DNA of 64,000 nucleotides from an uncultured Vicinamibacterales bacterium (GCA_964481395.1 CAYZYG010000009.1:959-64958), one strand, 5' to 3'. Shown: positions 2,729 to 36,364, counted from the stretch's first letter. Numbers and translations are program-made. The notes: generated from the letters alone by a model not told the origin.

Positions 2729-4936
2729 TTACTTCCAATACGGCCTCGCCAGCTCCACCACGTCCGGGAAGTCGATCCTGAACTTCTTCAGCGTGGCCTC
2801 CGTCGGCACCCCGTCCGTCGTCCAGCCTCGGCGCTTGTACACCGCATCCACGAGCTTGTTGTAGCGGTCCATCCGCCACTCGCGGTGCAGCCTCACTTTC
2901 TCCTCGGTCGTTTTGCCGGCCGGATCGATCCCGACGATGTCCTTGAGCTGCTTGTCGTAGCGCTCGGATCGTGACTCGTACTCTTCATTGGTGACCGGTC
3001 CGACCGCCCTGTACGGCGGGATGTCGAACTCGCGCCCGCCCTGGCCCATGCGCAGGTTGAACATCCGCTGGAAGTTGTAGACCGCTTCCGACTGCTCGAT
3101 CAGGCTCTGGCGGTCGAGCGGCTTCCCGGTAATACCCGTGTACAGCTCGAGGTAGTTGTTGACGTGCGCCGGAACCTTGGCGGCCTCAGGCCCGGGGTAC
3201 ATCTTCGCGTTGTCCGGGGGCTCGATGTCGTTCCACGGCAGCTTGCACAGCCCCTGCAGGCTGAACCACGTTCGGAACAGGGGGAAGTAGTGCAAGGCCT
3301 CGGCCTTGTCCTCGAAGGTGGGGATCTGGTTGTTCACCATGTCCATGAAGATGAGCCACGCCTCATCGTGCTGGGGGCCCTTGTTGGCCAGCGCGTATCC
3401 GCCCTGCTGCGCCAGCGACTCCTTGGACATGTACTGGGAGATCTCGAGGCCCTTGATCTGCATTCCGATGTCGCGGATCAGCTGCGGATCTCCCCATCCC
3501 TTCTCGATGAAGAGGTTCTGCATGTAGCGGACGCCCTTGCCCACGATCACGCCGAAGCCCTCGCCACGGGCCATGTCGTGGAGGAGCTGCACCTCGGACT
3601 CGCCGTTGCCCCAGCCGAGGTCGAGGCCCCCCGTGCGCTCCTTGTTCAGGATGCCCCGGTCGTAGCACTCCATCACGAACGCGCAGGCCGTGCCGTACGA
3701 GATCGTGTCGATGCCGTAGGTGTCGCAGTAGAAGTTCACCTCGAGCAGCCAGTCGGGATCGAACAGCCCGCAGTTGGACCCCAGGCCGGCCGCGTTCTCG
3801 TACTCGGGCCCGTCCACCGTGACGATGTGGCCCTTGTACGGCCCCGTGCGCACGACATGACCGTCCGCGCCCTTCGAGCAGGCCATGCCGCACCCGTACC
3901 AGCACCGGTCCGGCACCGCCTGTGTGAACCGTTTGTCCCACACCTGCGAGTCGATCTTCGGCGTGTCCGGGTGCTTGCCGTACTGGAAGTTGTAGACCGG
4001 CAGCAGGTCGTACGCGTCCATGATCTCGACGAGGTGCGCCGTGCCCTGCCGGCGCATGTGGTTCTGCTCGTCGTCGAAGTCGTGGATTTCCTTGTTGATG
4101 ATCCGCCCGACCTTGATGACCTGCTGGATGTCCGCCGCGTTGTTCAGGTCCGGCCCCATCTTGAAGCCATGGACGACGAGCGCCTTCAGCTTCTTGTCGC
4201 GGAACACCGTGCCCGTGCCGCCGCGGCCGGCCTGCTTCAGGCGGACGGCCCCGCGCTTCGGGTCGTACCAGGAGAAGTTCAGGCAGCCCATGTAGGCCGA
4301 CTCGGCGGCCTTGCCCGCTGACACGACCGCCACGTTCTGCATGTCCTTCGGATTGTCCGCGTACATGTGCGTGAAGATCTCGGCGGCGATGTGACTGTCG
4401 GGCGTCTCCTCGGGCGCCTCCTCGATGGTGATCGTGCCCTTCGGGCCGTCGATGACCACGATGACGTCGGTCTTCGCCTTGCCCCGGATCTCGACGGCAT
4501 CGAAGCCGACGAACTTGACGAGGGGCCCGAAATACCCGCCCACGTTGCAGTCGATGGGAATGCTCGTCATCGGCGACAGCGACACGACGATCGACTTGCC
4601 CGAGCCTGCGTACTGCGTGTTGCCCGCCAGGGGCCCCGGACTGATGATGATCTCGTTTTCGGGGTCGTTCCACTTCGTCTGCGGGGTGATGGCGTGCCAG
4701 AGATAGTAGAGGCCGAAGCCGCGGCCGCCGGTGAAGACGTCGATCATCTCGTCGGTGATGGCCTTCTCGCTGATCGCCATCGTGTCGAGATCGATGAAGA
4801 GGGTCCGCCGGGTGTAGCCCCGGACCGGCTGGCTCGGCGTGAACGGCACCTCGACGAGCACCTTGTGCGCGGCTTTCATCGCCGGCACGTCGTCGGCGTA
4901 GTTGGTTCGGACCTTGTAATCGTAGGTTACGGACAT
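2729..4936 (-). CDS. aor: Aldehyde:ferredoxin oxidoreductase family (tungsten/molybdopterin AOR), long form of 735 aa
   Basis: N-terminal GYTRRTLFIDLD...FTGGRGFGLYYLW and an overall AOR-family pattern across the full-length ORF. Confidence 0.9.
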   Translation of the reverse strand: MSVTYDYKVRTNYADDVPAMKAAHKVLVEVPFTPSQPVRGYTRRTLFIDLDTMAISEKAITDEMIDVFTGGRGFGLYYLWHAITPQTKWNDPENEIIISPGPLAGNTQYAGSGKSIVVSLSPMTSIPIDCNVGGYFGPLVKFVGFDAVEIRGKAKTDVIVVIDGPKGTITIEEAPEETPDSHIAAEIFTHMYADNPKDMQNVAVVSAGKAAESAYMGCLNFSWYDPKRGAVRLKQAGRGGTGTVFRDKKLKALVVHGFKMGPDLNNAADIQQVIKVGRIINKEIHDFDDEQNHMRRQGTAHLVEIMDAYDLLPVYNFQYGKHPDTPKIDSQVWDKRFTQAVPDRCWYGCGMACSKGADGHVVRTGPYKGHIVTVDGPEYENAAGLGSNCGLFDPDWLLEVNFYCDTYGIDTISYGTACAFVMECYDRGILNKERTGGLDLGWGNGESEVQLLHDMARGEGFGVIVGKGVRYMQNLFIEKGWGDPQLIRDIGMQIKGLEISQYMSKESLAQQGGYALANKGPQHDEAWLIFMDMVNNQIPTFEDKAEALHYFPLFRTWFSLQGLCKLPWNDIEPPDNAKMYPGPEAAKVPAHVNNYLELYTGITGKPLDRQSLIEQSEAVYNFQRMFNLRMGQGGREFDIPPYRAVGPVTNEEYESRSERYDKQLKDIVGIDPAGKTTEEKVRLHREWRMDRYNKLVDAVYKRRGWTTDGVPTEATLKKFRIDFPDVVELARPYWK

Positions 4937-10698: not shown

Positions 10699-13600
10699 TC
10701 AACGAACCTGCTTGAGCAATTCCGCGACGGCGGTCTCGAGCTGCTGGTCCTTGCCCGCGCTCATCACGGCGAACTCGTTCATCACCGTGATGTCGGGCTC
10801 GGTCTGGCGGTTCTCGAGGTACTGGCCCGCCATGTTCTTTACGCCGAGCGGCGGAACGCCCCAGCGTGTGCTGCCGTCCTGGAGCGACTCCCAGCCGGCG
10901 AAGGTGCACGTGCCCGGGACGGGCATGCCGACCAGCTTGCCGATGCCGAGCACCTTGTAGGTGTCGGCGTAGCAGTGGCCGTCGCTGTAGTTGGCTTCGT
11001 TGGCCAGCGAGATGCTCGGCTTGGTCCAGCGGAAGTTCGGCTCGAAACCGTTGCTGCGCGTATCGTTCGTGTAGTCGAAGAATCGCTTGCCGCTGAGGAA
11101 CATCGCGAGGTCGGCCACCAGGTCTCCGCCGCCGTTGAAGCGCGTGTCGACCACGAGCCCCTTCCGCGTGGCGAACTTGCCCATGGCCTCCTCGAAGGTG
11201 GTGCGGTAGGCGCCGTCGTTCATGCCCGGCACGTGGATGTAGCCGAGTTGGCCGTTGCTGAGGCGGTCCACCTCTTCCTGGTTGCGGCGGACCCAACGCG
11301 TGTACAGCAGCCTGTTCTCATCCCCGAGCGAAACGGGCGAGACGACGATCTCCCGTCTCGTGTCGCCCTCGACAATCACGAGCAGCGTCTTCCTGCCGGC
11401 CTTTCGATTCAGATACCGCGCCGGATCCCTGTCGGGCGCGATCGTCTCGCCGTCGATCGACTCGATGATCGCGCCCGGCTTGACGTTCATCCCCGCCTTG
11501 TCGAGCGGGCCGTTCCTGATCACCTCGACGACCTTGATGCCTGGGCCGGCGTACGCCTGGTCGTAGAAGATGCCCAGCGACGCCGTGGCATCGCCTTCGG
11601 AGCCGGATTGGCTGTAGCGGGCGCCGCTGTGGCTGACGTTGAGTTCTCCCAGCATCTCGCTGAGGACCTCCGCGAACTCGTACCCGTTGCCCACGTGCGG
11701 CAGGTACTTCTGATAGACGGGCTTGAGGCCGTCCCAGTCGATGCCGTGGTAGCCCGCCGTGTAGAACGTCTGCTTCGTGCGCCGCCAGACGTGCTCGAAC
11801 ATGAACGCCCGCTCGCCGGCGGTATCGAGGGTCATCTCGCCCTTGATGGCGATGCTCTCGCGCTTGCCGCCGGCCGGATCGATCTTCGAGAGGCTCCCGT
11901 CGGCCAGCAGGAAGATGTTCTTCTGGTCCTTGTCCCACGCCAGACTCCCGCCGTTGGCGTTGAGGGTGACCAGCATCTTCGTTTCCCGCGTGCGGAGCGT
12001 GGTCGTCCAGAGGTTCATGCCGCGCTCGAATCGGGCGAGGTAGTAGAGCGTCTCCCCGTCCTTGCTGACGAGCGCGTCGCCGAGAGACGAGGAGTGAATC
12101 GTCAGACGGGCCTTCCGCAGATCGAGGCCGTCGAACTCGATGTCGATGCCCTCGGGCTTCGCCTCGGTCTTCTCGTCCTTGGCGGCTTCCTTCTTCGCGG
12201 CGTCGGCCTTCTCCTTGTCCTTCTTCTCCTCGGCTTCCTTGACGAGGGCGAAGTCCTCCTTGCTCAACCGGAAGCGGTCCCAGGCTTCCTGGGTGAAGAA
12301 CATTCCGTAGACGTCGGCCTGCGCGCTGCCCGACTGGGCCACCGACTTGAGGCCGTCGCGGTTGCTGAACCACAGCATGGCCTTGCCGCCGAGCACCCAC
12401 TTGGCGCGCCGGTCGTGAAACCCGCTCTCGGTCAGGTTGATGACCTTGCCCTTGCCGTCGGTGCTGACGAGACCGACCTCTCCGGGTGCGAGCCCCGGGA
12501 CCGCGTAGTCGAAGAGGATCCACTTGCCGTCCGGGCTCCACTGGAAATACTGGTCCGCGTCGGAACCGGAATAGAGATGGTCGTTCGTCAGCAGCGTCCG
12601 GCTCTGCTTCGTCTCGACGTTGTAGACCTTGAGCGTCGTCCGGTTTTCGACGTAGGCGATCTCCTTGCCGTCGGGCGAGAACTCGGGCTGGTAGTTCTCG
12701 TGCTCGTTGGCGATGAGCGGCGTCTCCTTGATGATGGTGGACGCGTAGAAGTAGGGCTCCTCATCGCGGGCGCGCCGGGCCTCCATGATGCGCCAGCGGT
12801 TGCCGCGCTCGGAGGCGTACACCAGCGCCTTACCGTCCGGCGAGAACGTCAGGCCGCGTTCCTGCTCTGGCGTGCTGGTGATGCGCTTGGTGACCCCGCC
12901 CTCGACGCTGGTCACGAAGACCTCGCCGCGCGAGATGAAGGCGATCTCCTTGCCGGTCGGCGACACCGCCATCTCACGCGCGTTGCCCGTAATGGGCAGC
13001 ACACGCTCGTTGTTGGCCCTGGTGTCGGCTGCGATGGTCACCTTGACCTTCTCAGGGCCGCCCGAACCCCGCTTCGTGTAGAGTTCGCCGTCCCGGCTGA
13101 AGCAGAGGGTGCCATCGGCCGCCGTACTGAGGAACCGGACGGGTACGCCCTTGAACGACGTGACCTGTTCCGAGCGGCCGCCCTGCAGGCTCATCTTGTG
13201 CACGTTGAATGTGCCGCTCTCCTCGCTGAGGTAGAAGAAGGCCTGATCGTTGTCCGTGAGCACGGGCGTGCGGTCCTCACCCGCGAAGGTCGTGATCTTC
13301 CGGTGGGTGCCGGCGGCGATGTCGTACACCCACACGTCGCGGGCGATGGCAGACGAGTGGTGCTTGCGCCACTCATTCTCGCCGCCCTTCTTGTCGTGGT
13401 AGAGGAAGAACTTCCCGTCCCGGCTCAGCGCCACATCTTCAGCGGGGGTCGTCAGCACCTGGGTGACCCGGCCGCCGGTCACGGGCACCAAGTAGAGTTC
13501 CGGCTGCGACCCGGTGGGGAAGCTCCGGTTCGTCGCGGCGTCCTGGCGCGCGGCACCGAAGTAGACGCTCTTCCCGTCGTTCGCGAAGGCGTAGGGGTAC

Positions 13601-13941
13601 TCGGCGGCCGAGTGGTAGGTCAGACGCGTCGGTTCCCCGCCCTCGGCCGGCATCACGAAGACGTCGAAGTTGCCGTGCCGGTCGCTGGCGAAGGCGATCT
13701 GCTTCCCGTCGCGGCTCCACACGGGCATGTAGTCGTGGGCCTCGTGAGACGTCAGCGCGACGGCCGCGCCGCCGGAAGCGGGGACCCGATACAGGTCGCC
13801 CTCGTAGGTGAAGACAATCGTTTTCCCGTCCGGAGAGATGGCCGGGTACCGGCACCAGAGGGGCGTCGTCGGGGCGGTCGTGACGGGGAAGGCCGCCACG
13901 AAGAGGAGGCAGAGGGTCAGGACGGCTGTTCGCTTGGGCAT
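10699..13941 (-). CDS. Tricorn-protease-like S41 peptidase with TolB-like beta-propellers, exported
   Basis: Signal peptide, repeated PxxSPDGKxIxF propeller motifs, and a C-terminal S41 region (GYIHVPGM...VVDTRFNGGGD). Confidence 0.9.
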   Translation of the reverse strand: MPKRTAVLTLCLLFVAAFPVTTAPTTPLWCRYPAISPDGKTIVFTYEGDLYRVPASGGAAVALTSHEAHDYMPVWSRDGKQIAFASDRHGNFDVFVMPAEGGEPTRLTYHSAAEYPYAFANDGKSVYFGAARQDAATNRSFPTGSQPELYLVPVTGGRVTQVLTTPAEDVALSRDGKFFLYHDKKGGENEWRKHHSSAIARDVWVYDIAAGTHRKITTFAGEDRTPVLTDNDQAFFYLSEESGTFNVHKMSLQGGRSEQVTSFKGVPVRFLSTAADGTLCFSRDGELYTKRGSGGPEKVKVTIAADTRANNERVLPITGNAREMAVSPTGKEIAFISRGEVFVTSVEGGVTKRITSTPEQERGLTFSPDGKALVYASERGNRWRIMEARRARDEEPYFYASTIIKETPLIANEHENYQPEFSPDGKEIAYVENRTTLKVYNVETKQSRTLLTNDHLYSGSDADQYFQWSPDGKWILFDYAVPGLAPGEVGLVSTDGKGKVINLTESGFHDRRAKWVLGGKAMLWFSNRDGLKSVAQSGSAQADVYGMFFTQEAWDRFRLSKEDFALVKEAEEKKDKEKADAAKKEAAKDEKTEAKPEGIDIEFDGLDLRKARLTIHSSSLGDALVSKDGETLYYLARFERGMNLWTTTLRTRETKMLVTLNANGGSLAWDKDQKNIFLLADGSLSKIDPAGGKRESIAIKGEMTLDTAGERAFMFEHVWRRTKQTFYTAGYHGIDWDGLKPVYQKYLPHVGNGYEFAEVLSEMLGELNVSHSGARYSQSGSEGDATASLGIFYDQAYAGPGIKVVEVIRNGPLDKAGMNVKPGAIIESIDGETIAPDRDPARYLNRKAGRKTLLVIVEGDTRREIVVSPVSLGDENRLLYTRWVRRNQEEVDRLSNGQLGYIHVPGMNDGAYRTTFEEAMGKFATRKGLVVDTRFNGGGDLVADLAMFLSGKRFFDYTNDTRSNGFEPNFRWTKPSISLANEANYSDGHCYADTYKVLGIGKLVGMPVPGTCTFAGWESLQDGSTRWGVPPLGVKNMAGQYLENRQTEPDITVMNEFAVMSAGKDQQLETAVAELLKQVR

Positions 13942-14482: not shown

Positions 14483-15118
14483 TCACCGCAGCGCCTGTAC
14501 AGCCAGCAGGAACAGGGCCGCGCCGGTGACGACGTGCATGATCCACGCGCGGCGCCCCAGCAGGGCTGTCAGCCAGCTGAACGCCGAGCTGTAGCCGAGG
14601 TGGCAGACGAACGCCATCGCCACGTGCAGGAACGCCAGCGCGAGAAACTTTGCGGCGAAGCCGGGACCCGGCTCGACGAACAACGGGATGGAGCCCACGT
14701 AGAGGAGAGGCACGGCCGGGTTCAGCAGATTCGTCACGAGCCCCTGGCCGATCAGGAGCGGGTTCGAGGGCGCGGACAAGGCAGCCGCCGACGGCGGGGC
14801 GTCGGCCGCCGTGAGCGCACCGGCCCGTGCCAGGCGCCAGGCCTGCTGCAGGCTCCGTGCCCCGAGCCATGCCAGGCAAACCGCACCGCCCCACCTGATC
14901 ATCGACAATGCGTCCGGTGACTGACGCAGCAGCGCTGCCAGGCCTGCGGCCGATGCCACGGCCCACGTCGAATTGCCCAGCGCGATGCCGGCGGCCGTCA
15001 GCAGGCCGCCCGTGCGGCCGCGGGCGGCGGTGTTGCGAAGGACCACGGCCGTCGACATGCCGGGCGTGATGACGACCAGTGCCGCGACGCCGACGAACCC
15101 GGCCCAGTGCGCAGCCAC
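14483..15118 (-). CDS. LysE/RhtB-family amino-acid exporter
   Basis: 211 aa, GTG start, about 6 TM segments. The N-terminal VVITPGMSTAVVL motif matches the family. Starts 3 nt after the NRPS stop. Confidence 0.85.
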   Translation of the reverse strand: MAAHWAGFVGVAALVVITPGMSTAVVLRNTAARGRTGGLLTAAGIALGNSTWAVASAAGLAALLRQSPDALSMIRWGGAVCLAWLGARSLQQAWRLARAGALTAADAPPSAAALSAPSNPLLIGQGLVTNLLNPAVPLLYVGSIPLFVEPGPGFAAKFLALAFLHVAMAFVCHLGYSSAFSWLTALLGRRAWIMHVVTGAALFLLAVQALR

Positions 15119-15121
15119 CCC

Positions 15122-18100
15122 TCACTCCACCGCGCGCGTCGGCGAGCCCGCATAGATGCGATCCGGCTCGAGCGCATCCCGCTTCATGACGATGCCCTGG
15201 GGCGCGACGAAGGCCCGGTCTCCGATGTCGGCTCCGTAGAACACGACCGTATGACTGCCGACTGAGGCGCTGCGACCGACCCGCACCTTGTCGATCTTCA
15301 GGATGCGATCCTCGAAGGTGTGCGCCTGCAGATCGCACGACACGGTCGAGTCGTCCTCGAAGTGGAGCATGTCCGGATCGACGACCTGAGCGAATCCCGG
15401 TCCCAGCACGACGCGCCGGCCGATCCGCATCCCCATCAGCCTGAGGACCGCGTTGATGAGGAGCGTGCCCTCGAGCTGCGCCAGGACCCCCCGCGCCCAT
15501 TGATTCCAGGCGACGTAGAAGAAGTCCCACCGGCTGCACCAGCACGACCACAGCGGATGCTGTCCGGAACGCACGCGACCGAGCAGCAGCCACTTCAGGA
15601 CGACCGTGGCTCCCACGAGCACGCCCGCGGCGGCCAATGTCACGGCCGGGGCCAGCACGAAATGTGAGAACGCGCCACCCACCCGCCTGGAGCCCAGGAA
15701 CAGGCCCGCGTACCACAGGTACGCGATCAGGAGCGGCACGACCGGCAGGCCCAGGCGCAGAGACTCCCAGAAGAATCTGGTCGCATAGCGCAGGGCGTCA
15801 GGGTCATGGGTGAGGCTGCGATCGGCGGTGACCACCTCACGGCGCGGCAGCTCCATGGGCGGCACGCCGAACCACGTGCTGTCGGTCCGGGCCACGTCGG
15901 CATCCGCGACGGTGGCGACTCCGATGAACAGGTCTGCCGGCCACGCGTGGCCGGCGGGCACCACTGCGTGATTGCCGAGGAAGGTGCTCCGTCCGAGGCT
16001 CGTGTCGGCGATCGTCACGGTGCCGCGATGCCGCCAGGGCGCGCAGAAGTAAATACCGTCCGCGAAGAAGCTCTCGTCGCCAATCGACACGGTTTCGGGC
16101 AGGACGTCGATGATCGTGCTCACCTCGCAGTTCCTGCCGATGCGCATCCCTGCCAGGCGCAGCCACCACGGCCAGAACAGGCCTCCACTCAACCAGCGGC
16201 TGGCCGCGTCGACGATGCCCGTTCTGGTCCAGATTCGGATGGACTCGGCGCTCCACTGGCTGACCACGCCGGGCGAGATGGGGCGTGTGAGCCGCATGAC
16301 GACGCCCTGCGTGACGAGCCTCGCGGCCACGACGACGAACGCTCCGGCGATGACGATCACCACGCCGCGCGCCGAGACTGCCGGATGCTCCAGCCACGCC
16401 AGGACCCGCGAATCCAGGTCGGGCACCAGGGCCGCGGCAGCGATCATCCCGAGGACGATCGGGATCCACGACGCCAACGTCGCCGCCGTGCGGCCACCGA
16501 TGGCCAGCAGCGTGTAGCCGACTGGCCCGATCTCGCGTCCGCGCGTCACGTCTGGTGCCGGCGGTGCCTCGCCGGTCCTGGTCGCAGGCACCCCGGTCCA
16601 CCGCTCGTGGTCACCGACGGACTGGCCGGCAGGCAGCCACGAGAGTGGTGCCAGAAACCCGCCGCGTCCGACCGCGCTGCCGGGGCTCATGCCAGCCCGC
16701 ACGTCGAGCGTCGCGTCGGCGCCGATGTGGATTGGCCCGATGACGACGTGGCCGTCCTCGCGCTCGACGAGCCGGGCGCCACTGTCCTGCGCGAGCGTGG
16801 CGCCGTCTCCAATCGAGAGCAGGTCCCACCCCCCACGCTGCAGGTCCACACCGCGGTGGATGTAGACGCGCTTCCCGATCTGCGCGCCGAGGCACCGCAG
16901 AACGAAGGGCAGCACCGGCGTGCCTTCGATCCACCGCCAGGGGATCGACTGCGCCGTGCTCACCACAATCCAGTGCCTGGTGTAGAAACCGCTCCACACC
17001 GGCGCGCGCGTGGGCGTGTACCGACCCACGGCGAGCCGCTTGACCAGCAGGGTCAGCGGCACGGAGGCGAGGAGCCGTGCCAGCGTGGCGAGCACGATCA
17101 CCACCGGCATCGCGGCGACCACCCCGACGAGGCCAACGTTGCTCAGGGCCCATGGCAGGATCTCGAACGCTGCGAAGGCCAGCACCGCGCCCACGGCGAC
17201 GACTCTCAGCGCGAGCCAGACCGACTGGATCGTCGTCGAGAGAACGGGGCGGCCCGCTCGCTGGGGACCTCCCGCGCGGGGCGGCAACGTGGACAGCGCC
17301 GTGCTCTTCCGCGCGCGCATCCGTGCGGCGAGCGCGGCGACGGTCCGCGCCTCGTACAAGTCGCGGACCGTGGCCGTAGCCCCCCCGGCCACTCCCGCGT
17401 CACGCAACTCGCAGACGGCCGCCACGGCGGCCAGAGAGTCGCCGCCGAGATCGAGGAAGAAATCGTCGTCAACCGATAGCGGGCCGTCATGGTGGAGCGA
17501 GGCCGCGAACGCGGCCGCGACAGCCCGTTCGTCATCGGAACGCGCGCCGACGACAGCCTCACGGCCGTTGCCGTTCTCAGGCGGAAGGTCCGGCAACGAC
17601 TTCCGGTCCAGCTTGCCGCCGACGGTCGTTGGCAGATCCGCCGTCACGCCGAACCGGTTCGGAACCATGTACTCCGGGAGCACGCGTCGGAGCGCGGTCT
17701 TCAGCGCGGCAGTATCGACCGGCCCCAGCGGACCGTTCGGGACGATGTGGGCGGCGAGAACCTGGCGTGCGCCCGAACCCTGGACGCGGCACGCGGCCGC
17801 GCGGATGCCGGGCAGCGCCGCGAGGTGCGCCTCGATGGCGGTGAGTTCGACCCGATACCCGCGGAGCTTCACCTGCCCGTCGATGCGTCCCAGATACTCG
17901 AGGGCGGAATGGCCATTGCGGCGAACGAGATCCCCGGTGCGGTAGATCCGTCCGTGAACGGGATGGACCGGAAACTTCGTCGCGGTGACGGCCTCGCGAC
18001 CCCTGTACCCGCGAGCCAGTCCTGGCCCGGCAAGGCACAGCTCGCCAGGCTCCCCGTCCGGCAGCTCCTCGAGCGCATCGTCGAGCACGAAGGCACGATG

Positions 18101-19087
18101 TCCCCGGACGGGCCATCCGATCGTCACGGGCTCTCCCGGCCGAACACGGCCGCGGACGACGGTAACGGAGCACTCGGTCGGACCGTATCCGTTCTCAAGC
18201 CACAGGCCCTCAGACCAGAGGTCGGCCAGATCCGCCGGCAGCGCCTCACCGCCGACGTAGACGAGCTTCAGATCGGGCAGCTCGGCCCGGGGGTGGCTGC
18301 AGCCCATGCTGCGAAGGAGCGTCGGCGGCGGGCAGAAGACGGTGATGCGTTCCCGGCGGAGCCAGGGGACGAGATCCGGCCCCAGCCTCACGGTGTCGTC
18401 GTCCAGCGGTACGAGTGTTGCCCCAGCGGCGAACGCGAGCCAGCTCTCCTCGAGCGACGAATCGTAGGCCGGGGAGGAACACTGCGCGACGCGTTCGTTC
18501 GGCGTCAGACGGAAGTACTCGAGATCGGACGCCACGAGATTGCCGATGCCGCGATGCTCGATCATCACGCCTTTGGGCTCGCCTGTCGTGCCCGAGGTGT
18601 AGATGACGTACGCGAGATTGGAGAGATCGCCGTCGCGGCCGTTCAGCGACCGGACGGGAGGCGGCAGGCCTCGGGGAACCACGACCGGTCGCGGCCGGGC
18701 CCCGATCGCCGTCAGCCTGGCCTGGCCCTCTTCGCTGGTGATGACCGCCGCGGGATCGGCATCGTCCAGAATGCGGCGCACGTGTTCGTCCGGGAACACC
18801 GGATCGAGGCAGGTGAAGGCGCCGCCGACCTTCATCACGCCAATCTGCGCCGCGTACAACGCCGGCGTTTCACGGCCGAGAAAGACAGCGACGAGGCCTT
18901 CCGGAGCGACCAGGCTCTCCAGGGATTCGGCGACGGCGTCCGCCTGATGGCGGAGCGCCGCGTAGGTGATCTGCTGCCGATCGCGCCGCCCCCGTCCCGG
19001 TGGGACGTCGACGGCCACGCGGTTCGGGCAGCGCCCGGCGACCTCGTCGAAGAGCCGGTGGAGGAGCGGTATGCCGTCCGGGGGCAT
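15122..19087 (-). CDS. Pls/PosA-type single-module NRPS: adenylation + thiolation + three TM-separated hexapeptide-like C-terminal domains
   Basis: A-domain cores YTSGTTGEPKG, NGYGPTE, YRTGD, GRIDGQVKLRGYRVEL. Carrier motif LGGDSL. These are followed by three MRIGR/RVYIH-type left-handed-helix-like segments, each preceded by hydrophobic TM pairs. 1321 aa. Confidence 0.9.
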   Translation of the reverse strand: MPPDGIPLLHRLFDEVAGRCPNRVAVDVPPGRGRRDRQQITYAALRHQADAVAESLESLVAPEGLVAVFLGRETPALYAAQIGVMKVGGAFTCLDPVFPDEHVRRILDDADPAAVITSEEGQARLTAIGARPRPVVVPRGLPPPVRSLNGRDGDLSNLAYVIYTSGTTGEPKGVMIEHRGIGNLVASDLEYFRLTPNERVAQCSSPAYDSSLEESWLAFAAGATLVPLDDDTVRLGPDLVPWLRRERITVFCPPPTLLRSMGCSHPRAELPDLKLVYVGGEALPADLADLWSEGLWLENGYGPTECSVTVVRGRVRPGEPVTIGWPVRGHRAFVLDDALEELPDGEPGELCLAGPGLARGYRGREAVTATKFPVHPVHGRIYRTGDLVRRNGHSALEYLGRIDGQVKLRGYRVELTAIEAHLAALPGIRAAACRVQGSGARQVLAAHIVPNGPLGPVDTAALKTALRRVLPEYMVPNRFGVTADLPTTVGGKLDRKSLPDLPPENGNGREAVVGARSDDERAVAAAFAASLHHDGPLSVDDDFFLDLGGDSLAAVAAVCELRDAGVAGGATATVRDLYEARTVAALAARMRARKSTALSTLPPRAGGPQRAGRPVLSTTIQSVWLALRVVAVGAVLAFAAFEILPWALSNVGLVGVVAAMPVVIVLATLARLLASVPLTLLVKRLAVGRYTPTRAPVWSGFYTRHWIVVSTAQSIPWRWIEGTPVLPFVLRCLGAQIGKRVYIHRGVDLQRGGWDLLSIGDGATLAQDSGARLVEREDGHVVIGPIHIGADATLDVRAGMSPGSAVGRGGFLAPLSWLPAGQSVGDHERWTGVPATRTGEAPPAPDVTRGREIGPVGYTLLAIGGRTAATLASWIPIVLGMIAAAALVPDLDSRVLAWLEHPAVSARGVVIVIAGAFVVVAARLVTQGVVMRLTRPISPGVVSQWSAESIRIWTRTGIVDAASRWLSGGLFWPWWLRLAGMRIGRNCEVSTIIDVLPETVSIGDESFFADGIYFCAPWRHRGTVTIADTSLGRSTFLGNHAVVPAGHAWPADLFIGVATVADADVARTDSTWFGVPPMELPRREVVTADRSLTHDPDALRYATRFFWESLRLGLPVVPLLIAYLWYAGLFLGSRRVGGAFSHFVLAPAVTLAAAGVLVGATVVLKWLLLGRVRSGQHPLWSCWCSRWDFFYVAWNQWARGVLAQLEGTLLINAVLRLMGMRIGRRVVLGPGFAQVVDPDMLHFEDDSTVSCDLQAHTFEDRILKIDKVRVGRSASVGSHTVVFYGADIGDRAFVAPQGIVMKRDALEPDRIYAGSPTRAVE

Positions 19088-19104: not shown

Positions 19105-19557
19105 CTACTTCGGATGCGTGTAATAGATCTTGCCGACGATCTTCCAGCCCTCCGGGAACTTGTAGAGCGAGAGGTAGTCGGTGAACGTGTGGACGCCGTC
19201 CCGCCAGATCTCGACCCGGACGACGGCGGCGGTGCCCTGTATGTCAACCTGGGTGAAGTCGTACTTGATGGCGGGCGGCTTCGGCGCCGCAGGATCGGCG
19301 GCGGCCTTTTCGATACGCCCGGCCCAGTCCGCGAGCGTCACGAAGGACATCTTCCCGTCGCCGCCGAGGACGAGCATGCGGAAGTCGGGGTGGAAGCCGG
19401 CCCGCATGGCGGCGGCATCGCGCTTGATGTGGACGCCGTTGATGTACGCCTCGGTGACGACCTTGATGACGTCCTCCCGGTCGGCCGCGAGGCCGGACGA
19501 CGGGACCATCAGCATCAGGCAGATCGCGAAGGCGACGGCGGTGATCGGTCTGAACAT
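19105..19557 (-). CDS. NTF2-like (SnoaL / putative lumazine-binding) exported protein
   Basis: ATG at 19557 after GAGGAG. Signal peptide MFRPITAVAFAICLMLMVPSSGLA, and an NTF2-like pattern ending YKFPEGWKIVGK. Confidence 0.7.
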   Translation of the reverse strand: MFRPITAVAFAICLMLMVPSSGLAADREDVIKVVTEAYINGVHIKRDAAAMRAGFHPDFRMLVLGGDGKMSFVTLADWAGRIEKAAADPAAPKPPAIKYDFTQVDIQGTAAVVRVEIWRDGVHTFTDYLSLYKFPEGWKIVGKIYYTHPK

Positions 19558-19667: not shown

Positions 19668-20195
19668 ATGTCGATCCTGAAGATGCTGGGTTTCGGTCGC
19701 GGGGGCGACCAGGGCCGGTCCGGCAACACCGATACCGTGCGGCGCATCGTCGATGCCCTGCAGCACATGGAGCCCGACCGCGCGCGGTACGTCGCCGCGT
19801 TCGCGTACATCCTCGGTCGCGTGGCCATCGCCGACCACGAGGTCAGCGACGCCGAGACGCGTCTGATGGAGCGGATTGTGATGGAGCGGGGCGGGCTTCC
19901 CGAGGAGCAGGCCATCATCGTCGTCCAGATCGCGCGCAGCCAGAACCAGCTCTTCGGCGGAACCGAGGACTTTCTCGTGACGAGGGAGTTCAACACGCTC
20001 GCCAGCTACGAACAGAAGCTGGCCCTCATCGACTGCCTCTTCGCCGTGTCGTCGGTGGACGGCACCATTGCCCTGAGCGAGGAGCAGGAGATCGCCCGGA
20101 CGGCCCTCGAACTCAAAGTCGAGCACGCCGATGTGGTCCGGGCCCGCGTGGCCTACCGCGAGTATCTGGCCGTCCTGAAGCGCGACATGCCCTGA
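19668..20195 (+). CDS. TerB-family (tellurite-resistance TerB-like) protein
   Basis: The patterns AFAYILGRVAIADHEVSDAETRLM and LIDCLFAVSSVDGTIALSEEQEI resemble the tandem TerB helical repeat. Confidence 0.7.
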   Translation: MSILKMLGFGRGGDQGRSGNTDTVRRIVDALQHMEPDRARYVAAFAYILGRVAIADHEVSDAETRLMERIVMERGGLPEEQAIIVVQIARSQNQLFGGTEDFLVTREFNTLASYEQKLALIDCLFAVSSVDGTIALSEEQEIARTALELKVEHADVVRARVAYREYLAVLKRDMP

Positions 20196-20417
20196 TTCCT
20201 GAGCACGCCGGAGCTTCGCTCTTCCTTCGCGGAGCGGCCGCTTCCGATCCCGCATCCTTTGAAGTCCCGTCTGGCGGACGCCGATACAGCAGTTAGCGTG
20301 GAGTGTCCCACGGGTGGCCCCCTGTGCACGCGGCAATCGTCCGCCGGGGCGGTCGAGATTCCGCGCGAGGTCTGACACCGGTCGAAGCCACAGGAGCGCC
20401 GAGTAGAGCGAACGAGC

Positions 20418-22517
20418 ATGTCAGCCGGCATCAGCCAGACCCCCGCGTCCGTGGAGACTCAGATCCTGCAGTTCGCGCGGGCGTTTCGAAGTGCCGCCCG
20501 CGTGGTCGGCTTCTACCCGCCCGCCCATCCTGCTGTCGGCACGTCGCTGGAACACGTCGCGGCGGCCGCACGCAGCGCGGCGGCCGGGCGTCCCCTGGCG
20601 CTCACCATCCTGCCGGACGCATTCCTCGTGGGGGGCGAGCCGCTCGAGAGCCGGGAGACGGCCATCGCCGAGCTGGCCGAGATTCTGCACCGCCACCGTG
20701 TCGGGGCCCTGAATCTCCGGGGCAGCGCCGGCACCCAGGCCTGGCGCGCGCTGTTCGAACTGCTGGCGCTGCCGCCGGAGGACATCAGCGCCACGGGCGG
20801 CATCCAGCGCAGGTGGATGGCCCTCCGGTACTCGGACCCCGTGATTCTCGAAATCGACTTTGGCGAGATGCTGCGGGGACGTGTCGGCGGTGACTTCGCC
20901 GAGCTGGCCGGCGTCATCAACCACTATCTCGAGGCAGCGGGCGTCGGGTCGTCCTTCGCGGACGACCCCTACGCCATTCTCCTGGCGGCGCTGGAGAGGG
21001 CGGTCGGCGACGAAGCCGCCGTGGCGACCCTGATTGCCGAACTCCGCGCCGGGGCGCAGCTCATCCGGATGACCCAGGCCGACCGCTTCGACCATCTGAT
21101 GCGGAACGCTGCGCGCATCGGCGAACACCTCACCGAGAGCCAGATGGCCGGGCTGCTCGGGGAGCGGGGCAAACCCACGGCGCTGGTGGGGGCCGTCGAC
21201 GTGGTCGCGTCCCTCATCGAGCGGATGTCCGACACGACGGTGGCCCGGTTCCTGGCGGCGGCGATGAGCATTGGGGACCGGCCGTCGGACCGGTTGATCG
21301 AGGTCTTCACGTCGCTCGCGCCAGACGCGCAGCGGCGGTCGGCCATCCTGCCGATGGCGCGTGCCAGTGTCGCCGGTATTTCACCGGACGCGGTGGCAGG
21401 GTGGACGGACCTGGAACGGCAGCTGGAGTCCCTGTCGGATCGGCAGTTCGTGTCGGACGCGTACGAACGGGAACTCGAAACCGCGAGACGCCGCAGCGAG
21501 GAGGCGGGGCGCCTGAGCCAGGATCCGCCGGAGCGCATCACCGCATGGGTGCAGTCGCTGGACGACGGCGCGGTAGAGGATCTGGACCTGCGGCTCATCG
21601 AGGACCTCGCGCGGATCGAGCAGGATCCCGCCCAGTTCCGCGTCGTGGTCGGTATCTTGATCGGCCGAATCAACGAGGCCGCCGAGCCCGGTGACTGGGC
21701 CACGGCCGGGCGGCTTGCGGCCGCTCTGATGGGTGCGGTGAGGGCGGCGACCGCGGGAGAATTGGCCGAGGCCGCGACCCACGCCCACACGCTGCTCAGA
21801 GACTCGCCGGCGTGCGCTGATGCCCTGGCGGCGCTTGAGGATGCTCGAACGGCGGCCCCTGTAGGGCAGATCAGGTTCCTCCTGACCGTCGGTCCGGCCC
21901 TGATCCCCCGAATCGTGCGTCGGTGGGTCACGGCCAAGGAGCCTGCCGTGCGCGCGCGCCTCGAGTCAGCGCTCGGAGAGTTCGGGAAGGAGGGACGTGA
22001 GGCCCTCCGCCGGATGCTCGGTTCGACGGAGACGTCACTGAAGACGGCTGCGATCAGATTGCTGAACGTGGGATCTGCGACGGACCATCTCGGCGCGCTC
22101 GAATCGCTTCTGTCCGACGCCAGTCAGGACGTGCGCCAGGAAGCGCTCCGGGCGCTGACCACGGCCGAAGCGGACCGAGCGCATGAGGTGCTGGCGAGAG
22201 GGATCGCACGTGCCGACGCCGACCAACAGCTTGCGTTCGTCGGCGAGCTCGTCGCGGTGTCGGGACGGGGGCTGGTGCCGGTCCTCCGGCGCCTCGTGTC
22301 GTACCTCGACCAAGCTGCCGTGGAGCCGCAGGTGTACCTCGCGGTCATCGACGGTCTGAAGCAGACGGGCGGTCCCGAGGCCGCGTCAGCGCTGCGGCAG
22401 GTGTCCGAGCGCGGGTCCTGGCGGACGCCGCTCCGCACGATGAAATTCCGGAGCGCCGCGAAGAACGCGCTGCGCACGATCGGATCACCCGATCTGCCCG
22501 GTGGGAGCCACGCATGA
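20418..22517 (+). CDS. Hypothetical protein with C-terminal HEAT-like repeats and an N-terminal domain resembling that of the downstream HD-GYP protein
   Basis: 699 aa. The C-terminal ~250 aa show repeated Ala/Leu-rich helical pairs (e.g. DVRQEALRAL). The stop overlaps the next start (ATGA). Confidence 0.7.
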   Translation: MSAGISQTPASVETQILQFARAFRSAARVVGFYPPAHPAVGTSLEHVAAAARSAAAGRPLALTILPDAFLVGGEPLESRETAIAELAEILHRHRVGALNLRGSAGTQAWRALFELLALPPEDISATGGIQRRWMALRYSDPVILEIDFGEMLRGRVGGDFAELAGVINHYLEAAGVGSSFADDPYAILLAALERAVGDEAAVATLIAELRAGAQLIRMTQADRFDHLMRNAARIGEHLTESQMAGLLGERGKPTALVGAVDVVASLIERMSDTTVARFLAAAMSIGDRPSDRLIEVFTSLAPDAQRRSAILPMARASVAGISPDAVAGWTDLERQLESLSDRQFVSDAYERELETARRRSEEAGRLSQDPPERITAWVQSLDDGAVEDLDLRLIEDLARIEQDPAQFRVVVGILIGRINEAAEPGDWATAGRLAAALMGAVRAATAGELAEAATHAHTLLRDSPACADALAALEDARTAAPVGQIRFLLTVGPALIPRIVRRWVTAKEPAVRARLESALGEFGKEGREALRRMLGSTETSLKTAAIRLLNVGSATDHLGALESLLSDASQDVRQEALRALTTAEADRAHEVLARGIARADADQQLAFVGELVAVSGRGLVPVLRRLVSYLDQAAVEPQVYLAVIDGLKQTGGPEAASALRQVSERGSWRTPLRTMKFRSAAKNALRTIGSPDLPGGSHA

Positions 22518-23932
22518 TGGATCGGGGAGTGCGGCTGCAGCGATTCGAAGAAGTCGTTCACCGGCTCAGCGGCGCGCTCAACGCCGCGCGCATGTACTCC
22601 AGCGACCACCCGAGTGTCGCCGAGCACTGCCGGGCGCTCGTTGCCGCGCTCGGGCCGCTCTATCAGACCGAGAAGGCGGTGCTCATCGGATTCCTCGGCG
22701 GAGAGGTTATCGCCGACGACACTCCCCTGCTTCGGGCGAGCGCCTACCGGACCGAGCTCATCCGCGACATGCAGGCGCTGGGCGTCCATCGGGTGATCTT
22801 CGAGCGGGGCGTGACCGAGGAGGAGGTCAGGCAGTTCGTGCACGCCGCGGCCATCGCCCGGCCTGAGGACCGGACGGCAGTTGATGACGCCGCCGCGTCT
22901 GACGCGACTGTAGACTTCCTCGTGCTCGCGCACCTCAGGGCCGGACGCATCCCCGTCGACGGCACGGCTGGCCGGTGGGGATCCAGTTTCGTGTCGGCCC
23001 GCCAGGTGTACAGCGGGTCGGTTGAGTCGGCTCGTGCCGTGTGGGACAACGCGCTGGCAGAGGGGCGCGCCGACACGCTGCTGGCGCGCGAGACGGTCGA
23101 TCAGCTTGCCGAGGCCGTCGGCGACTCGATGGGCCTGATGATCGGACTCACAGGAATGAAAAGCCACGATGAGTACACGTTCACCCACATGGTGAACGTG
23201 TCCATCCTGACCATGGCGCAGGCACGCTCGCTCGGCGTCGAAGGGTCGCAGTTGCGCGCGCTCGGCCTGGCCGGGTTGATGCACGACATCGGCAAGGTCA
23301 AGACGCCGCTCGAGATCCTCACCAAGCCCAGCAAACTGACGGATCGTGAGTTCGACATCATGAAGCGGCACCCGGTCGAGGGCGCGGAAATGCTGCGTTC
23401 GGCGGCCGAGATGCCCCGCATCGCGCCCGTCGTGGCCTTCGAGCATCACCTGCGGCTCGACGGGACCGGCTACCCGTTCGGCCTGCAGCGGCCTGGACTG
23501 AACCTCGCGACGCAACTCGTCGGGATTGCCGACGTCTACGACGCCATGCGATCGAAACGGTCGTACCAGCAGGCATTTCCCACGGACCGGATCATCGAGG
23601 TGATGCGGCGCAACGACGGCAAGCAGTTCGACCAGCACCTCGTGCGTCGTTTCATCGACCTGATGGGCGTGTACCCCCCGGGATCGCTCGTCCGCCTGTC
23701 GACCAACGAGGTGGCGGTCGTCGTGGCGAACGACGGTCCTGACCCGTCGCAGCCTACGGTGAAGGTGCTGTTCGACTCGGGCAGTCAGCCCTTGCCGGAT
23801 CCGGAGACGCGCCGGCTGTGGGCTGAGGCGTCCGACGATCCCTACGGGGATCCCGGGACGAGCATCGTCGAGGCCCTCGACCCGTCGGCGTTCGACGTCG
23901 ACGCCCTCAGTCTGCTGGCGGCGACGTCCTGA
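22514..23932 (+). CDS. HD-GYP domain phosphohydrolase (probable c-di-GMP phosphodiesterase)
   Basis: HDIGKVKTP...KRHPVEG...FEHHLRLDGTGYPFG is the HD-GYP signature. Confidence 0.9.
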   Translation: MMDRGVRLQRFEEVVHRLSGALNAARMYSSDHPSVAEHCRALVAALGPLYQTEKAVLIGFLGGEVIADDTPLLRASAYRTELIRDMQALGVHRVIFERGVTEEEVRQFVHAAAIARPEDRTAVDDAAASDATVDFLVLAHLRAGRIPVDGTAGRWGSSFVSARQVYSGSVESARAVWDNALAEGRADTLLARETVDQLAEAVGDSMGLMIGLTGMKSHDEYTFTHMVNVSILTMAQARSLGVEGSQLRALGLAGLMHDIGKVKTPLEILTKPSKLTDREFDIMKRHPVEGAEMLRSAAEMPRIAPVVAFEHHLRLDGTGYPFGLQRPGLNLATQLVGIADVYDAMRSKRSYQQAFPTDRIIEVMRRNDGKQFDQHLVRRFIDLMGVYPPGSLVRLSTNEVAVVVANDGPDPSQPTVKVLFDSGSQPLPDPETRRLWAEASDDPYGDPGTSIVEALDPSAFDVDALSLLAATS

Positions 23933-33633: not shown

Positions 33634-36195
33634 TCAGGCCAAGCTTCCCAGGCGCGTCAGGGCGATCACGGGCTCGCCGGTACCGCGCGACGCCCCCAGA
33701 TCGACCTCGAACTCCGCGGCCCAGTCGTTGTGCATGTCGGGATCGACGAGCATCTGCTGGACCTTCCAGACCTCTCGGGAGTCGTCCGGCGTGACGTAGG
33801 TGTGCCGGAGGTTCCGCGCCTCCGGATCGAAACGCAGGTCCGCGTGTTCGACGCGGTACGCCTCCCACAGCGCTTTCAACCGATCCGGCGACCAGACCTG
33901 GTCGTCGCCATCGCGCGGGCTGTCGAGCACGTCAACCGCCGCGGAGTCGAGACGGGACCATCCCCGCAGGAAGGCGAAGATCCGCGCGCGGATGGCGGCG
34001 GTGAACCGCCTGGTGTCGCGCGTGACGTCGGCGGCGGCCTCCTCGGCTCCAGGCGGCCGGAGTTCCTTCACGGCCGTCGCCGCGGCGCCGGGCGGCCGGT
34101 ACGCGGGGTCGCGCATCCGCTCCCACTCGTCCGCCAGGCTCGAATCGACCATCGTCAGGAGCGTCCGCAGGTACTGCTCCATGTCGATGACCTCGTCCGA
34201 CTTCGCGTAGTCGGGAACGGTGTTCCGGAGGACTTTGTACACGCTGTTCAGATGGCGGAGCAGCAGGCCCTCGGACCGCTGCAGCTCGTAGTCGTAGATG
34301 TACTCGGCAAACGACCGGAACTGCTCGAACATCTCCCGCGCGATCGACTTCGGGCGGATGTTCTCCTCGCCGACCCACGGGTGTTTGTCGGCGAAGGCGT
34401 TGAACGTGTCGTATACGAAATCGCGCAGGGGCTTCGGATACTCGAGCTTCTCGAGCTCCTCCATGCGCTGCTCGTACTCGACGCCGTCGGCCTTCATCTG
34501 CGCGACGGCGCGGTCCTTGATCCGGTCGAGCTGGCGTCGGAGGATGATCTCGGGATTCTCGAGAATGGCCTCGACGAGCGTGAGCAGGTCGAGCGCGTAG
34601 TCCGGCGACGCGGGATCGAGCAGCGGAATCGTCTCGAGGAGGTACAGCGAGAGCGCCTGGTCCATCGAGAAGTCGTCCTGCAGCTCGACGTTGACCCGCA
34701 GCCGGGATCCCTCCTCGGTCTTCGGCACGAACTCGACGATGCGGCGATCGACCAGCGCCCTGAAGAGCTGCCAGGCGCGCCGCCGGTGCGCGTTCTTGGC
34801 CACGTCGGTGTCGTGGCAGTCCCTGATGATCCGCTGCATGGCCCGGCAGCCGTCGCCCTTCCGGCTGAGCACGTTCAACAGCATCCCGTGCGACACCTGG
34901 AACCGCGACACGAGCTGTTCGGGCTGGGCCGCGATGAGCCGCTTGAAGGTATTGAGATCCCAGTTCACGAAGTTGTGCTCGGGCGGCCTTCGCTTGACGA
35001 CTTTCTTCCCCTCCTTCGCGGCCTTCTCGCTCAGCTTGATGTTCTCGATGACGTGCTCCGGCGCCTGCACGACGACGTAGCCCTGGTCGTCGAAGCCCTT
35101 CCGCCCGGCGCGCCCGGCAATCTGATGGAAGTCGCGGGCGCTGAGGATGCTCGTCTTCCGCCCGTCGAACTTGCACAGCCTCGTGAACAGAACGGTCCGG
35201 ATCGGCACGTTGATGCCGACCCCCAGCGTGTCGGTCCCGCAGATCACCTTGAGCAGGCCGCGCTGCGCGAGCTGCTCGACGAGCACGCGGTACTTCGGCA
35301 GCAACCCCGCGTGGTGCAGGCCGATCCCGTGCTTCAGCCACTTGCGGACGTCCGATCCGTACGGGCTCGTGAAGTGGTAGTCGGCAATCGCCGACGCGAT
35401 CGCGGCCTTCTCGTCCCGCGTGCAGATCTTCAGGCTCGTGAAGTCCTGGGCGCTCGACGCGGCGTCGGCCTGGGTGAAGTGCACCACGTAGACGGGGACC
35501 CTCTCCTCGTCCACGAGTTTCTCGATCGTGTGGGCCAGGGGGATCTCGGCGTAGCTGAACTCCAGCGGCACGGGCCGCTCCCCGGACTTGATGCTCTCCG
35601 TCGGAAAGCTGTTGAGCCGGGTCAGCTCCTCCTCGAAGAAGCGTGTGTCGCCGAGCGTCGCGGACATGAGCAGGAAGCGCGAGTTCGGCAGCGTCAGGAG
35701 CGGCGTCTGCCACGCCACCCCCCGGTCCCGATCCGCGTACCAGTGGAATTCGTCCATCACGACGTCGTCGACCCACGCGTCGGCGCCCTCGCGCAAGGCG
35801 ACGTTGCCGAGAATCTCCGCGGTACAGCAGAGGATGGGCGCGTCGCGATTGACGCTGGCGTCACCAGTCGAGAGGCCCACGTATTCCGGTCCGAACTCCC
35901 GGCAGAGCGCCATCCACTTCTCGTTGACCAGGGCCTTGATGGGACAGGTATAGACGGCCCGACGGTCGTGCGCGAGCGACGCGAACAGCATGGCCGAGGC
36001 CACCAGCGACTTGCCCGAGCCCGTAGGCGTGTTGAGGATGACGTTCTTGTCCTCGAAGATTGCGAGGATGGCCTCTTCCTGCGCGGGATAGAGCGTCAGG
36101 CCGATGTTCGTCACGTAGTCGAGGAACCGCTCGAGCAGCTCGTCGGCGGACGGATCCGCGTGGCCGGGGAGGAACTCGTGAAGTGGCGCCGCCAT
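33634..36195 (-). CDS. DEAD/DEAH-box SF2 helicase with a DUF3516-like C-terminal region
   Basis: ATG at 36195. Motifs [21 protein letters not shown] and [10 protein letters not shown]. Confidence 0.9.
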
Positions 36196-36364
36196 GTGTG
36201 GCTGTTGTACTCCGAAACGACAGCGGCGCGACAGTCGGGACCCGACTTCGCCGCGCACGCGGACGCGGCTTCGTCGAGGCAGGCCCGGGACCCGGATCCC
36301 GGGACCCGATCGCCGTCAGTTCCTTTGTGCCATACTCCGCGAGTCAATCGACGGAGACCGACAC

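Follow-up and report, generated by a model that had tools for sequence, protein, structure and literature searches.

We analyzed a 64,000-nucleotide stretch of DNA from an uncultured Vicinamibacterales bacterium (GCA_964481395.1 CAYZYG010000009.1:959-64958; referred to below as the window, with positions counted from its first letter), in which a gene on the minus strand encodes a large membrane-bound nonribosomal peptide synthetase (NRPS). The gene is real and intact, and its protein, hereafter the synthetase, has the single-module architecture of Pls, which makes epsilon-poly-L-lysine in Streptomyces albulus, and of PosA, the delta-poly-L-ornithine synthetase of Acinetobacter baumannii (ATY43264.1). 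It belongs to a distinct, widespread and monophyletic clade of Pls/PosA-like proteins, nearly all of which share the substrate-pocket code DSECYGGVTK. Since this pocket corresponds to none of the six polymers known so far, the enzyme probably makes a cationic amino-acid polymer that is new.

Domain architecture and coding quality of the synthetase

The N-terminal half of the synthetase carries one adenylation (A) domain and one carrier (T) domain (Table 1). Pfam matched AMP-binding (residues 13-361, E 5e-67), AMP-binding_C (418-492) and PP-binding (522-589) and found no Condensation or Thioesterase domain in the protein, which also scores above the cut-off of the NCBIfam amino-acid adenylation model TIGR01733. 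All core motifs of the A domain are intact, as are the phosphopantetheine serine of the carrier domain and the A10 lysine.

The 690-aa C-terminus contains six hydrophobic segments, which Kyte-Doolittle hydropathy resolves into three pairs (~618-649/652-687, 867-893/901-934, and 1112-1133/1138-1172), each followed by a beta-helix repeat. The three resulting units are homologues of one another (26-31% identity; internal repeat BLAST, E 2e-10 to 1e-4), and in a profile search of the PDB each repeat matched hexapeptide/gamma-carbonic-anhydrase beta-helix proteins with E down to 1.5e-8; the Pfam Hexapep match reached 16 bits, under its threshold of 27. An AlphaFold2 model of the C-terminal domain, computed from 10 clade sequences, has a mean predicted local distance difference test score (pLDDT) of 81.4 and a predicted template modeling score (pTM) of 0.84. 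Foldseek searches with this model returned serine, galactoside and maltose acetyltransferases (probability 0.95-1.0), each covering one repeat only. Thus, each repeat has the fold of these left-handed beta-helix (hexapeptide) acyltransferases, and the three are predicted to pack like their trimers; unlike those enzymes, the synthetase holds three repeats in one membrane-anchored chain, and its donor would be a carrier-protein thioester rather than acyl-CoA. No solved structure of a Pls-type C-terminal domain was found in the PDB by sequence profile or fold search (to April 2026).

The C-terminal domain aligns with almost the full length of the Pls/PosA C-terminal model TIGR02353 (profile positions 11-694 of 695, E 1.4e-103), but its score of 347.6 bits lies below the curated cut-off of 423.1 bits. 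The synthetase is colinear with PosA over the entire A-T-(transmembrane (TM) pair + beta-helix) x3 arrangement (27.6% identity over 1321 columns, E 1e-115; PosA sequence from the supplement of Patel and Gulick, 2023, PMC10522769). Both proteins are about 1320 aa long, lack condensation and thioesterase domains, usually stand alone in the genome, and have the same predicted pseudo-trimeric beta-helix polymerization domain. With Pls the synthetase shares the architecture, the family-conserved C-terminal motifs and, presumably, an iterative mechanism with a non-covalently held chain.

The GC content at third codon positions (GC3) is 0.85 with normal GC1 and GC2, level with other credible genes of this window (67.8% GC), and the identical protein with the same flanking genes occurs in at least three other metagenome samples. 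A preliminary description, made from the sequence, had given a 1321-aa open reading frame (ORF) at exactly these coordinates, omitting the strand, which is minus, and had read from it one A domain and one carrier domain, no condensation or thioesterase domain, and three tandem beta-helix domains behind pairs of hydrophobic helices. Pfam, hydropathy, repeat BLAST, PDB profiles and AlphaFold2/Foldseek agree with each of these points, and every string it quoted is present (YDSSLEE 208-214, LENGYGPTE 297-305, LGGDSL 547-552, RVYIHRGVDL 740-749, MRIGRNCEVS 981-990, and MRIGRRVVLG 1220-1229).

Table 1. Features of the synthetase, its surroundings in the window, and partner genes in homologous loci (TM, transmembrane; L and P numbers denote surveyed loci and homologous proteins)
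Feature	Position (nt)	Strand	Residues	Remarks
Synthetase ORF	15122-19087	minus	1321 aa + stop	A-T-(TM pair + beta-helix) x3 membrane NRPS
Adenylation domain	17612-19051	minus	13-492	Core motifs intact
A3 motif			163-173	YTSGTTGEPKG
A5 motif			297-305	LENGYGPTE, which holds NGYGPTE
A7 motif			382-386	YRTGD
A8 motif			400-415	
A10 motif			490-496	GGKLDRK
Pocket code, with GrsA positions			D209, S210, E213, C252, Y277, G279, G300, V308, T309, K492	235, 236, 239, 278, 299, 301, 322, 330, 331, 517, respectively
Carrier (PP-binding) domain	17321-17524	minus	522-589	
Phosphopantetheine serine motif	17432-17449	minus	547-552	LGGDSL
C-terminal Pls/PosA-type polymerization domain	15140-17200	minus	630-1316	TIGR02353, full-length, below cut-off
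Unit 1	16508-17236	minus	TM pair ~618-687	Beta-helix repeat 1 (RVYIHRGVDL 740-749 ... WTGVPA)
Unit 2	15788-16507	minus	TM pair ~867-934	Beta-helix repeat 2; family-conserved E988-S-T, FFADGIY 1007-1013, FLGNH 1036-1040, W1072xGxP
Unit 3	15125-15787	minus	TM pair ~1112-1172	Beta-helix repeat 3; family-invariant loop QAHTFEDR 1254-1261; conserved K1264, M1301-K1302
LysE-superfamily (RhtB/LeuE-like) amino-acid exporter	14483-15118	minus	211 aa	Start 4 nt past the synthetase stop
Lumazine_bd_2 (NTF2/SnoaL-like) protein	19105-19557	minus	150 aa	Signal-peptide-like N-terminus; 17 nt before the synthetase start
Tricorn-protease-like protein	10699-13941	minus	1080 aa	PD40 propellers, Tricorn_C1, PDZ, Peptidase_S41; 540 nt downstream of the exporter
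Divergent gene set	19668-23932	plus	175, 699, 472 aa	TerB-domain, HEAT-repeat, HD/HDIG phosphohydrolase
Aldehyde:ferredoxin oxidoreductase	2729-4936	minus		AFOR_N/AFOR_C, tungsten-enzyme family
DEAD-box helicase with DUF3516	33634-36258	minus		
SET-domain genes, example loci	L011:7502-8101; L040:7570-8118; L065:7482-8099; L017:1284-1856			Homologous loci
C-terminal acyltransferase fusions				P0027, P0032, P0050, P0051, P0054, P0055, P0057, P0089, P0107, P0111; loci L011, L013, L035, L048
FadD-like sequences	L010:1155-2729; L016:6365-7933			Also L023, L026, L059, L079

Substrate pocket and phylogenetic placement

To read the specificity code we aligned the A domain to that of GrsA (PheA), a reference that yields DAWTIAAICK at the canonical positions and matches PDB 1amu residues 1-557 except for residue 2 and the last aligned residue. 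The synthetase code is DSECYGGVTK, with V308 and T309 placed ungapped from the GPTE motif. Applied to other family members, the same extraction gave DAESIGTVVK and DMEHNGTVSK, as published for S. albulus Pls and A. baumannii PosA, respectively, which validates the procedure. DSECYGGVTK equals none of the six experimentally confirmed codes, namely those for ornithine (Orn, DMEHNGTVSK), lysine (Lys, DAESIGTVVK), diaminobutyric acid (Dab, DFECLSAVTK), diaminopropionic acid (Dap, DFEYVGTVTK), beta-Lys (DGESVSVVNK), and D-Dab (DFECLSCVSK; all PMC10522769). It differs from the Pls code, and from the Lys type DAESIGTV(V/I)K in general, at five of ten positions (2, 4, 5, 7, and 9).

Code positions 1 (Asp) and 3 (Glu) are conserved in all characterized cationic homopolymer synthetases, where they bind the alpha-amine and the side-chain cation, respectively, and position 2 determines substrate length, with Phe for Dap and Dab, Met for Orn and Ala for Lys (PMC10522769). 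Like PosA, the synthetase has both acidic residues (D235 and E239 in GrsA numbering), and a basic substrate therefore remains the best guess, as the preliminary description had proposed. Relative to PosA, Ser replaces the chain-length Met at position 2, Gly replaces the Thr that supports the terminal amine, and position 299 is Tyr; Gly occupies both 301 and 322. The residue at 299 is invariably aromatic, Tyr in nearly all homologues, with a single Trp and a single Phe variant. The earlier proposal that 239 and 299 both carry an acidic residue stands for E239 (E213), the only acidic residue that would bind the side chain, but not for 299, which is Tyr277. The Glu of LENGYGPTE (E298), considered for that position, was rejected as it aligns with GrsA 320, which is no code position. 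These residues suggest that the monomer is a long amino acid ending in a guanidino or (methyl)ammonium group, whose head group Glu213 would hold and Tyr277 would stack against, and that it is not Lys, Orn, Dab or Dap. Judged from the pocket, L-arginine or a close analogue is the most likely monomer.

This pocket has been seen before. Patel and Gulick (2023) listed DSECYGGVTK as an uncharacterized binding pocket of proteins from Novosphingobium sp. (WP_072382105.1) and a Bdellovibrionales bacterium (OFZ39577.1), and reported that the A domain of the latter modestly activates L-Arg and is no more active with any of the four diamino acids assayed (PMC10522769). Besides the code, the synthetase shares with these two proteins the motifs YDSSLEE, CPPPTLL, VYVGGEALP and WLENGYGPTEC and its clade, but it comes from a different phylum, and its NTF2-like and LysE/RhtB neighbors are specific to its own lineage. 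Identity to the OFZ39577.1 A domain is roughly 35-40%, a qualitative figure taken from fragmentary alignments (26-42%) to a DNA copy damaged by optical character recognition. The Pls/PosA-like kind is thus already known and the pocket was published in 2023, which partly pre-empts the novelty suggested earlier. No product of any DSECYGGVTK protein is reported in the literature searched, in which Patel and Gulick (2023) is the sole related source, and the earlier decision to leave the product unassigned holds.

A word-indexed search returned 120 full-length homologues with 49-71% identity from Acidobacteriota, Phycisphaerae/Planctomycetota and Anaerolineae, nearly all with DSECYGGVTK and all named solely "amino acid adenylation domain-containing protein" or "NRPS-like." When the C-terminal 722 aa were searched with HMMER against 1.84 billion cluster representatives, 2564 proteins matched (E <= 0.001) with a clear step in score: nearly every match scoring over about 320 bits carries DSECYGGVTK, whereas those below about 280 bits have Lys-, Orn- and Dap-type codes. 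Proteins with the DSE code form one bipartition in a neighbor-joining tree of C-terminal domains (bootstrap 80/100). Mean identity of the synthetase C-terminal domain is 43.5% to the clade and 26% (maximum 29%) to the other proteins, which average 35% among themselves. Over the full length, colinear alignments give 30-33% identity to Lys/Orn/Dap-code representatives; for those with a Lys code the value is about 33% overall and about 26-29% in the C-terminal domain.

The curated family model separates the same groups. Three further clade members score 328-374 bits against TIGR02353, as opposed to 611-644 bits for four Lys/Orn/Dap-code proteins. Given its score under the curated threshold, the synthetase is better described as a member of a sister clade than as a plain member of the Pls/PosA family, to which the preliminary description had assigned it; the architecture and the full-length alignment support the wider assignment. 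The scores below the Pls/PosA cut-off also explain why the clade is missed by current annotation. Both checks proposed at the outset, the specificity code and the C-terminal phylogeny, thus set the synthetase apart, the code from epsilon-poly-L-lysine synthetases and the C-terminal domain from the Lys, Orn and Dap types (PosA included).

In a scan of one genome per GTDB species, at least 506 genomes encode a relative. These include cultured strains of Kutzneria, Amycolatopsis, Lentzea, Planosporangium and Streptomyces and many metagenome-assembled genomes (MAGs) of Acidobacteriota, Planctomycetota, Verrucomicrobiota, Chloroflexota, Armatimonadota, Gemmatimonadota and Proteobacteria. Of 61 full-length genomic homologues, drawn from at least six phyla, 56 carry the exact ten-residue code. 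Among the matches listed, the closest (87% identity) is from an Acidobacteriota MAG whose locus also encodes the downstream LysE-family protein and a tricorn-protease homologue, which supports the acidobacterial origin proposed earlier. As far as we are aware, the clade is new in its size and coherence as a phylogenetic group, in its near-invariant code, in its position under the curated family threshold, and in its coupling to SET-domain genes (see below).

Despite the divergence of the C-terminal domain, much of the family pattern is retained. In a set of 27 C-terminal domains of Lys, Orn or Dap type, 104 positions show at least 85% conservation, and at 76 of them the synthetase has the identical residue. 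All the conserved charged and polar residues that we listed are kept, namely E988, D1010 (in FFADGIY), N1039 (in FLGNH), R1104, E1108, R1111, K1165, Q1254-x-H1256-x-F-E1259-D1260-R1261, K1264 and K1302. A loss of the residues needed for amide-bond formation, which the preliminary description had named as evidence against its proposal, is therefore not what the alignment indicates. The QAHTFEDR loop interrupts beta-helix 3 and is modeled with low confidence (model residues 625-634), as is often the case for flexible catalytic loops, which it may resemble.

A natural chimera also bears on the C-terminal domain. The cluster representative P0153 (1349 aa) joins an A-T half of Dap type (code DFEALGTVTK; 54% identity with a DFE-code protein, 40% with the synthetase) to a C-terminal half of the clade type (42.5% identical to the synthetase and 31-32% to Dap- and Lys-type representatives). 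This combination suggests that a clade-type C-terminal domain is able to polymerize an amino-bearing monomer.

Neighboring and fused genes in the window and across the clade

In the window, the synthetase gene lies between a gene for a probably secreted NTF2-like protein and one for an amino-acid exporter (Table 1). The 4-nt gap makes it probable that exporter and synthetase are co-transcribed. The best NCBIfam matches of the exporter are of RhtB/LeuE type, nearer than LysE proper. The same trio surrounds the 71%-identical homologue, where the outer neighbors differ, and homologues with 57-59% identity stand alone among housekeeping genes. When the exporter was compared by tblastn with 80 homologous loci, only the closest relative matched, and we therefore rejected a LysE-type exporter as a clade-wide partner that would point to Lys or Arg. 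Since the trio is absent from more distant homologues and the exporter is restricted to close relatives, it is best seen as a lineage-specific unit and not as a signature of the clade. Consensus scans for promoters and terminators near the operon gave no useful information.

When all ORFs from the 80 loci were clustered, one neighbor recurred, a SET-domain protein (PF00856) of about 145-200 aa. Of the 70 loci with enough upstream sequence, 28 (40%), in at least six phyla, have its gene directly upstream of the synthetase and in the same orientation; the two appear translationally coupled, since in most loci they overlap at stop and start or are separated by a few nucleotides. In one homologue (P0073) the SET domain is fused to the N-terminus of the synthetase. 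No SET-domain gene was found in the window, and the literature searched held no link between SET domains and Pls/PosA-like synthetases. Several homologues carry a C-terminal fusion to an integral-membrane acyltransferase of about 350 aa (HGSNAT_cat/DUF418/Acyl_transf_3), which is not present in the synthetase of the window; these fusions hint at acylation of the product, or of its acceptor, at the membrane. Most loci lack genes for precursor biosynthesis near the synthetase, and no dedicated ones recur in the clustered loci, which fits a common or primary metabolite as the monomer.

Some further genes were noted around these loci. In six of them, from Blastocatellia/Acidobacteria, a Gemmatimonadaceae MAG, and Pedosphaera and Verrucomicrobiae MAGs, a FadD-like AMP-binding sequence of acyl-CoA-ligase type, some 520 aa in length, sits just in front of the synthetase or runs into its 5' part. 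The tricorn-protease-like gene downstream of the exporter is absent beside the 71%-identical homologue; that its protein degrades the product in the manner of Pld is speculation. The divergent gene set, in which the HEAT-repeat and HD/HDIG genes overlap by 4 nt, is kept beside the synthetase in the contigs with the identical and the 71%-identical proteins. The aldehyde:ferredoxin oxidoreductase and DEAD-box/DUF3516 genes seem to be part of the ordinary chromosome and to have no relation to the synthetase. No further biosynthetic genes were seen in the window, the rest of which looks like ordinary chromosomal DNA, and no tRNA genes or Rfam families at gathering score were detected in positions 1-64000.

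Proposed product, alternatives and significance

In Pls, the monomer is adenylated by the A domain and then held as a thioester on the T domain; the tandem C-terminal domains link it to a monomer or oligomer that diffuses freely and is at no stage bound covalently (PMC9205021). By analogy, the cytoplasmic A domain of the synthetase would adenylate one specific cationic amino acid and load it as a thioester onto the phosphopantetheine arm of the T domain. The C-terminal chain, anchored by its three helical hairpins and mimicking a trimer of left-handed beta-helix acyltransferases, would then repeatedly move the aminoacyl group to the amino group of a free monomer or of a non-covalently held growing chain. 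The resulting cationic homo-oligomer or polymer would exit through the membrane part, and the RhtB/LysE-type exporter could possibly balance the monomer pool; the NTF2-like protein may likewise have a role beside the synthetase. On this basis we consider it moderately likely that this intact member of the DSECYGGVTK clade makes a cationic amino-acid oligomer or polymer from an Arg-like monomer.

Several points weigh against this proposal. For none of the clade members has a product been observed, and the sole A-domain assay in the clade gave "modest" activity with Arg, for which its authors suggested that the true substrate may be a larger analogue (PMC10522769). The guanidino group of Arg is a poor nucleophile, and an Arg polymer would need an alpha-linkage or unusual chemistry, unlike the known products of the family. 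With a C-terminal domain about 26% identical to those of characterized type and below the family cut-off, the acceptor could differ as well, and the catalytic competence of this domain is read from conservation alone. The LysE/RhtB and NTF2-like neighbors, being confined to close relatives, say little about the chemistry of the clade.

The divergence of the C-terminal domain and the glycan-type acyltransferase fusions keep alive the main rival explanation, in which the synthetase is a fused Dlt/MprF-like aminoacyl transferase that places single cationic residues onto an envelope acceptor (a lipid head group, exopolysaccharide, lipopolysaccharide or peptidoglycan) and thereby tunes surface charge. 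Its fold is that of sugar, alcohol and amine acyltransferases, and some clade members are fused to the HGSNAT/DUF418/Acyl_transf_3 membrane acyltransferase. Members of this domain family act on glycans. The very broad, single-copy distribution of the gene and its frequent isolation among housekeeping genes would also suit an envelope function. However, the synthetase retains the conserved polar residues of its polymerizing relatives, the chimera with a Dap-type A-T half suggests amino-acid acceptors, and neither glycosyltransferase nor lipid-synthesis genes recur nearby in the ORF clustering of the 80 loci. We regard such a transferase as unlikely, although it is the leading alternative to the polymer-forming synthetase that we favor.

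An ordinary synthetase of epsilon-poly-L-lysine, delta-poly-ornithine, poly-Dap or poly-Dab, that is, a known polymer in a new host, would account for the shared architecture, the full-length TIGR02353 alignment and the conserved D235 and E239. We nevertheless consider it very improbable: the code departs from that of Pls at half of its positions and is unlike every characterized code, the A domain with the same code was no more active on the four known diamino substrates in vitro (PMC10522769), and the C-terminal domain falls into a separate clade, with 348 bits against the 611-644 bits of Lys/Orn/Dap-type proteins. Long spurious ORFs are common at the 68% GC of the window, and the gene could in principle be such an artefact or a decayed, inactive remnant. 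This is effectively refuted by its codon-position composition, its intact motifs and strong hidden Markov model matches, the identical protein in several metagenomes, and hundreds of full-length homologues with 45-71% identity.

Returning to an Arg-like polymer as the preferred product, a more specific version can be proposed for the clade as a whole, tentatively and as something short of an even chance: an undescribed biopolymer consisting of a homo-oligomer or polymer of Arg or of another long guanidino or ammonium amino acid, with a linkage chemistry unlike that of the six known isopeptide polymers, and in many lineages further N-methylated (by the SET-domain protein) or acylated (by the HGSNAT-like domain).

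Cationic homopoly(amino acid)s serve as food preservatives, antimicrobials and cell-penetrating carriers, and only six have been tied to a synthetase. The clade described here comprises hundreds of species, mostly from uncultured phyla, with a near-invariant pocket that fits none of the six polymers and no name in the NCBI model. If its product were identified, a new natural polymer would be gained along with a new rule of substrate choice for enzymes of this class, and an unexpected role of bacterial SET-domain methyltransferases might come to light. As the same code occurs in cultured actinomycetes (Kutzneria, Lentzea, Amycolatopsis, and Planosporangium), the question is directly testable; carriers of the exact code include Kutzneria viridogrisea DSM 43850, K. 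buriramensis DSM 45791, Lentzea terrae and Planosporangium thailandense. If the clade does make an undescribed polymer, its spread across the genomes of at least 506 species of Acidobacteriota, Planctomycetota, Verrucomicrobiota, Chloroflexota, Actinomycetota and others would place it among the most widespread nonribosomal products of soil and freshwater bacteria.

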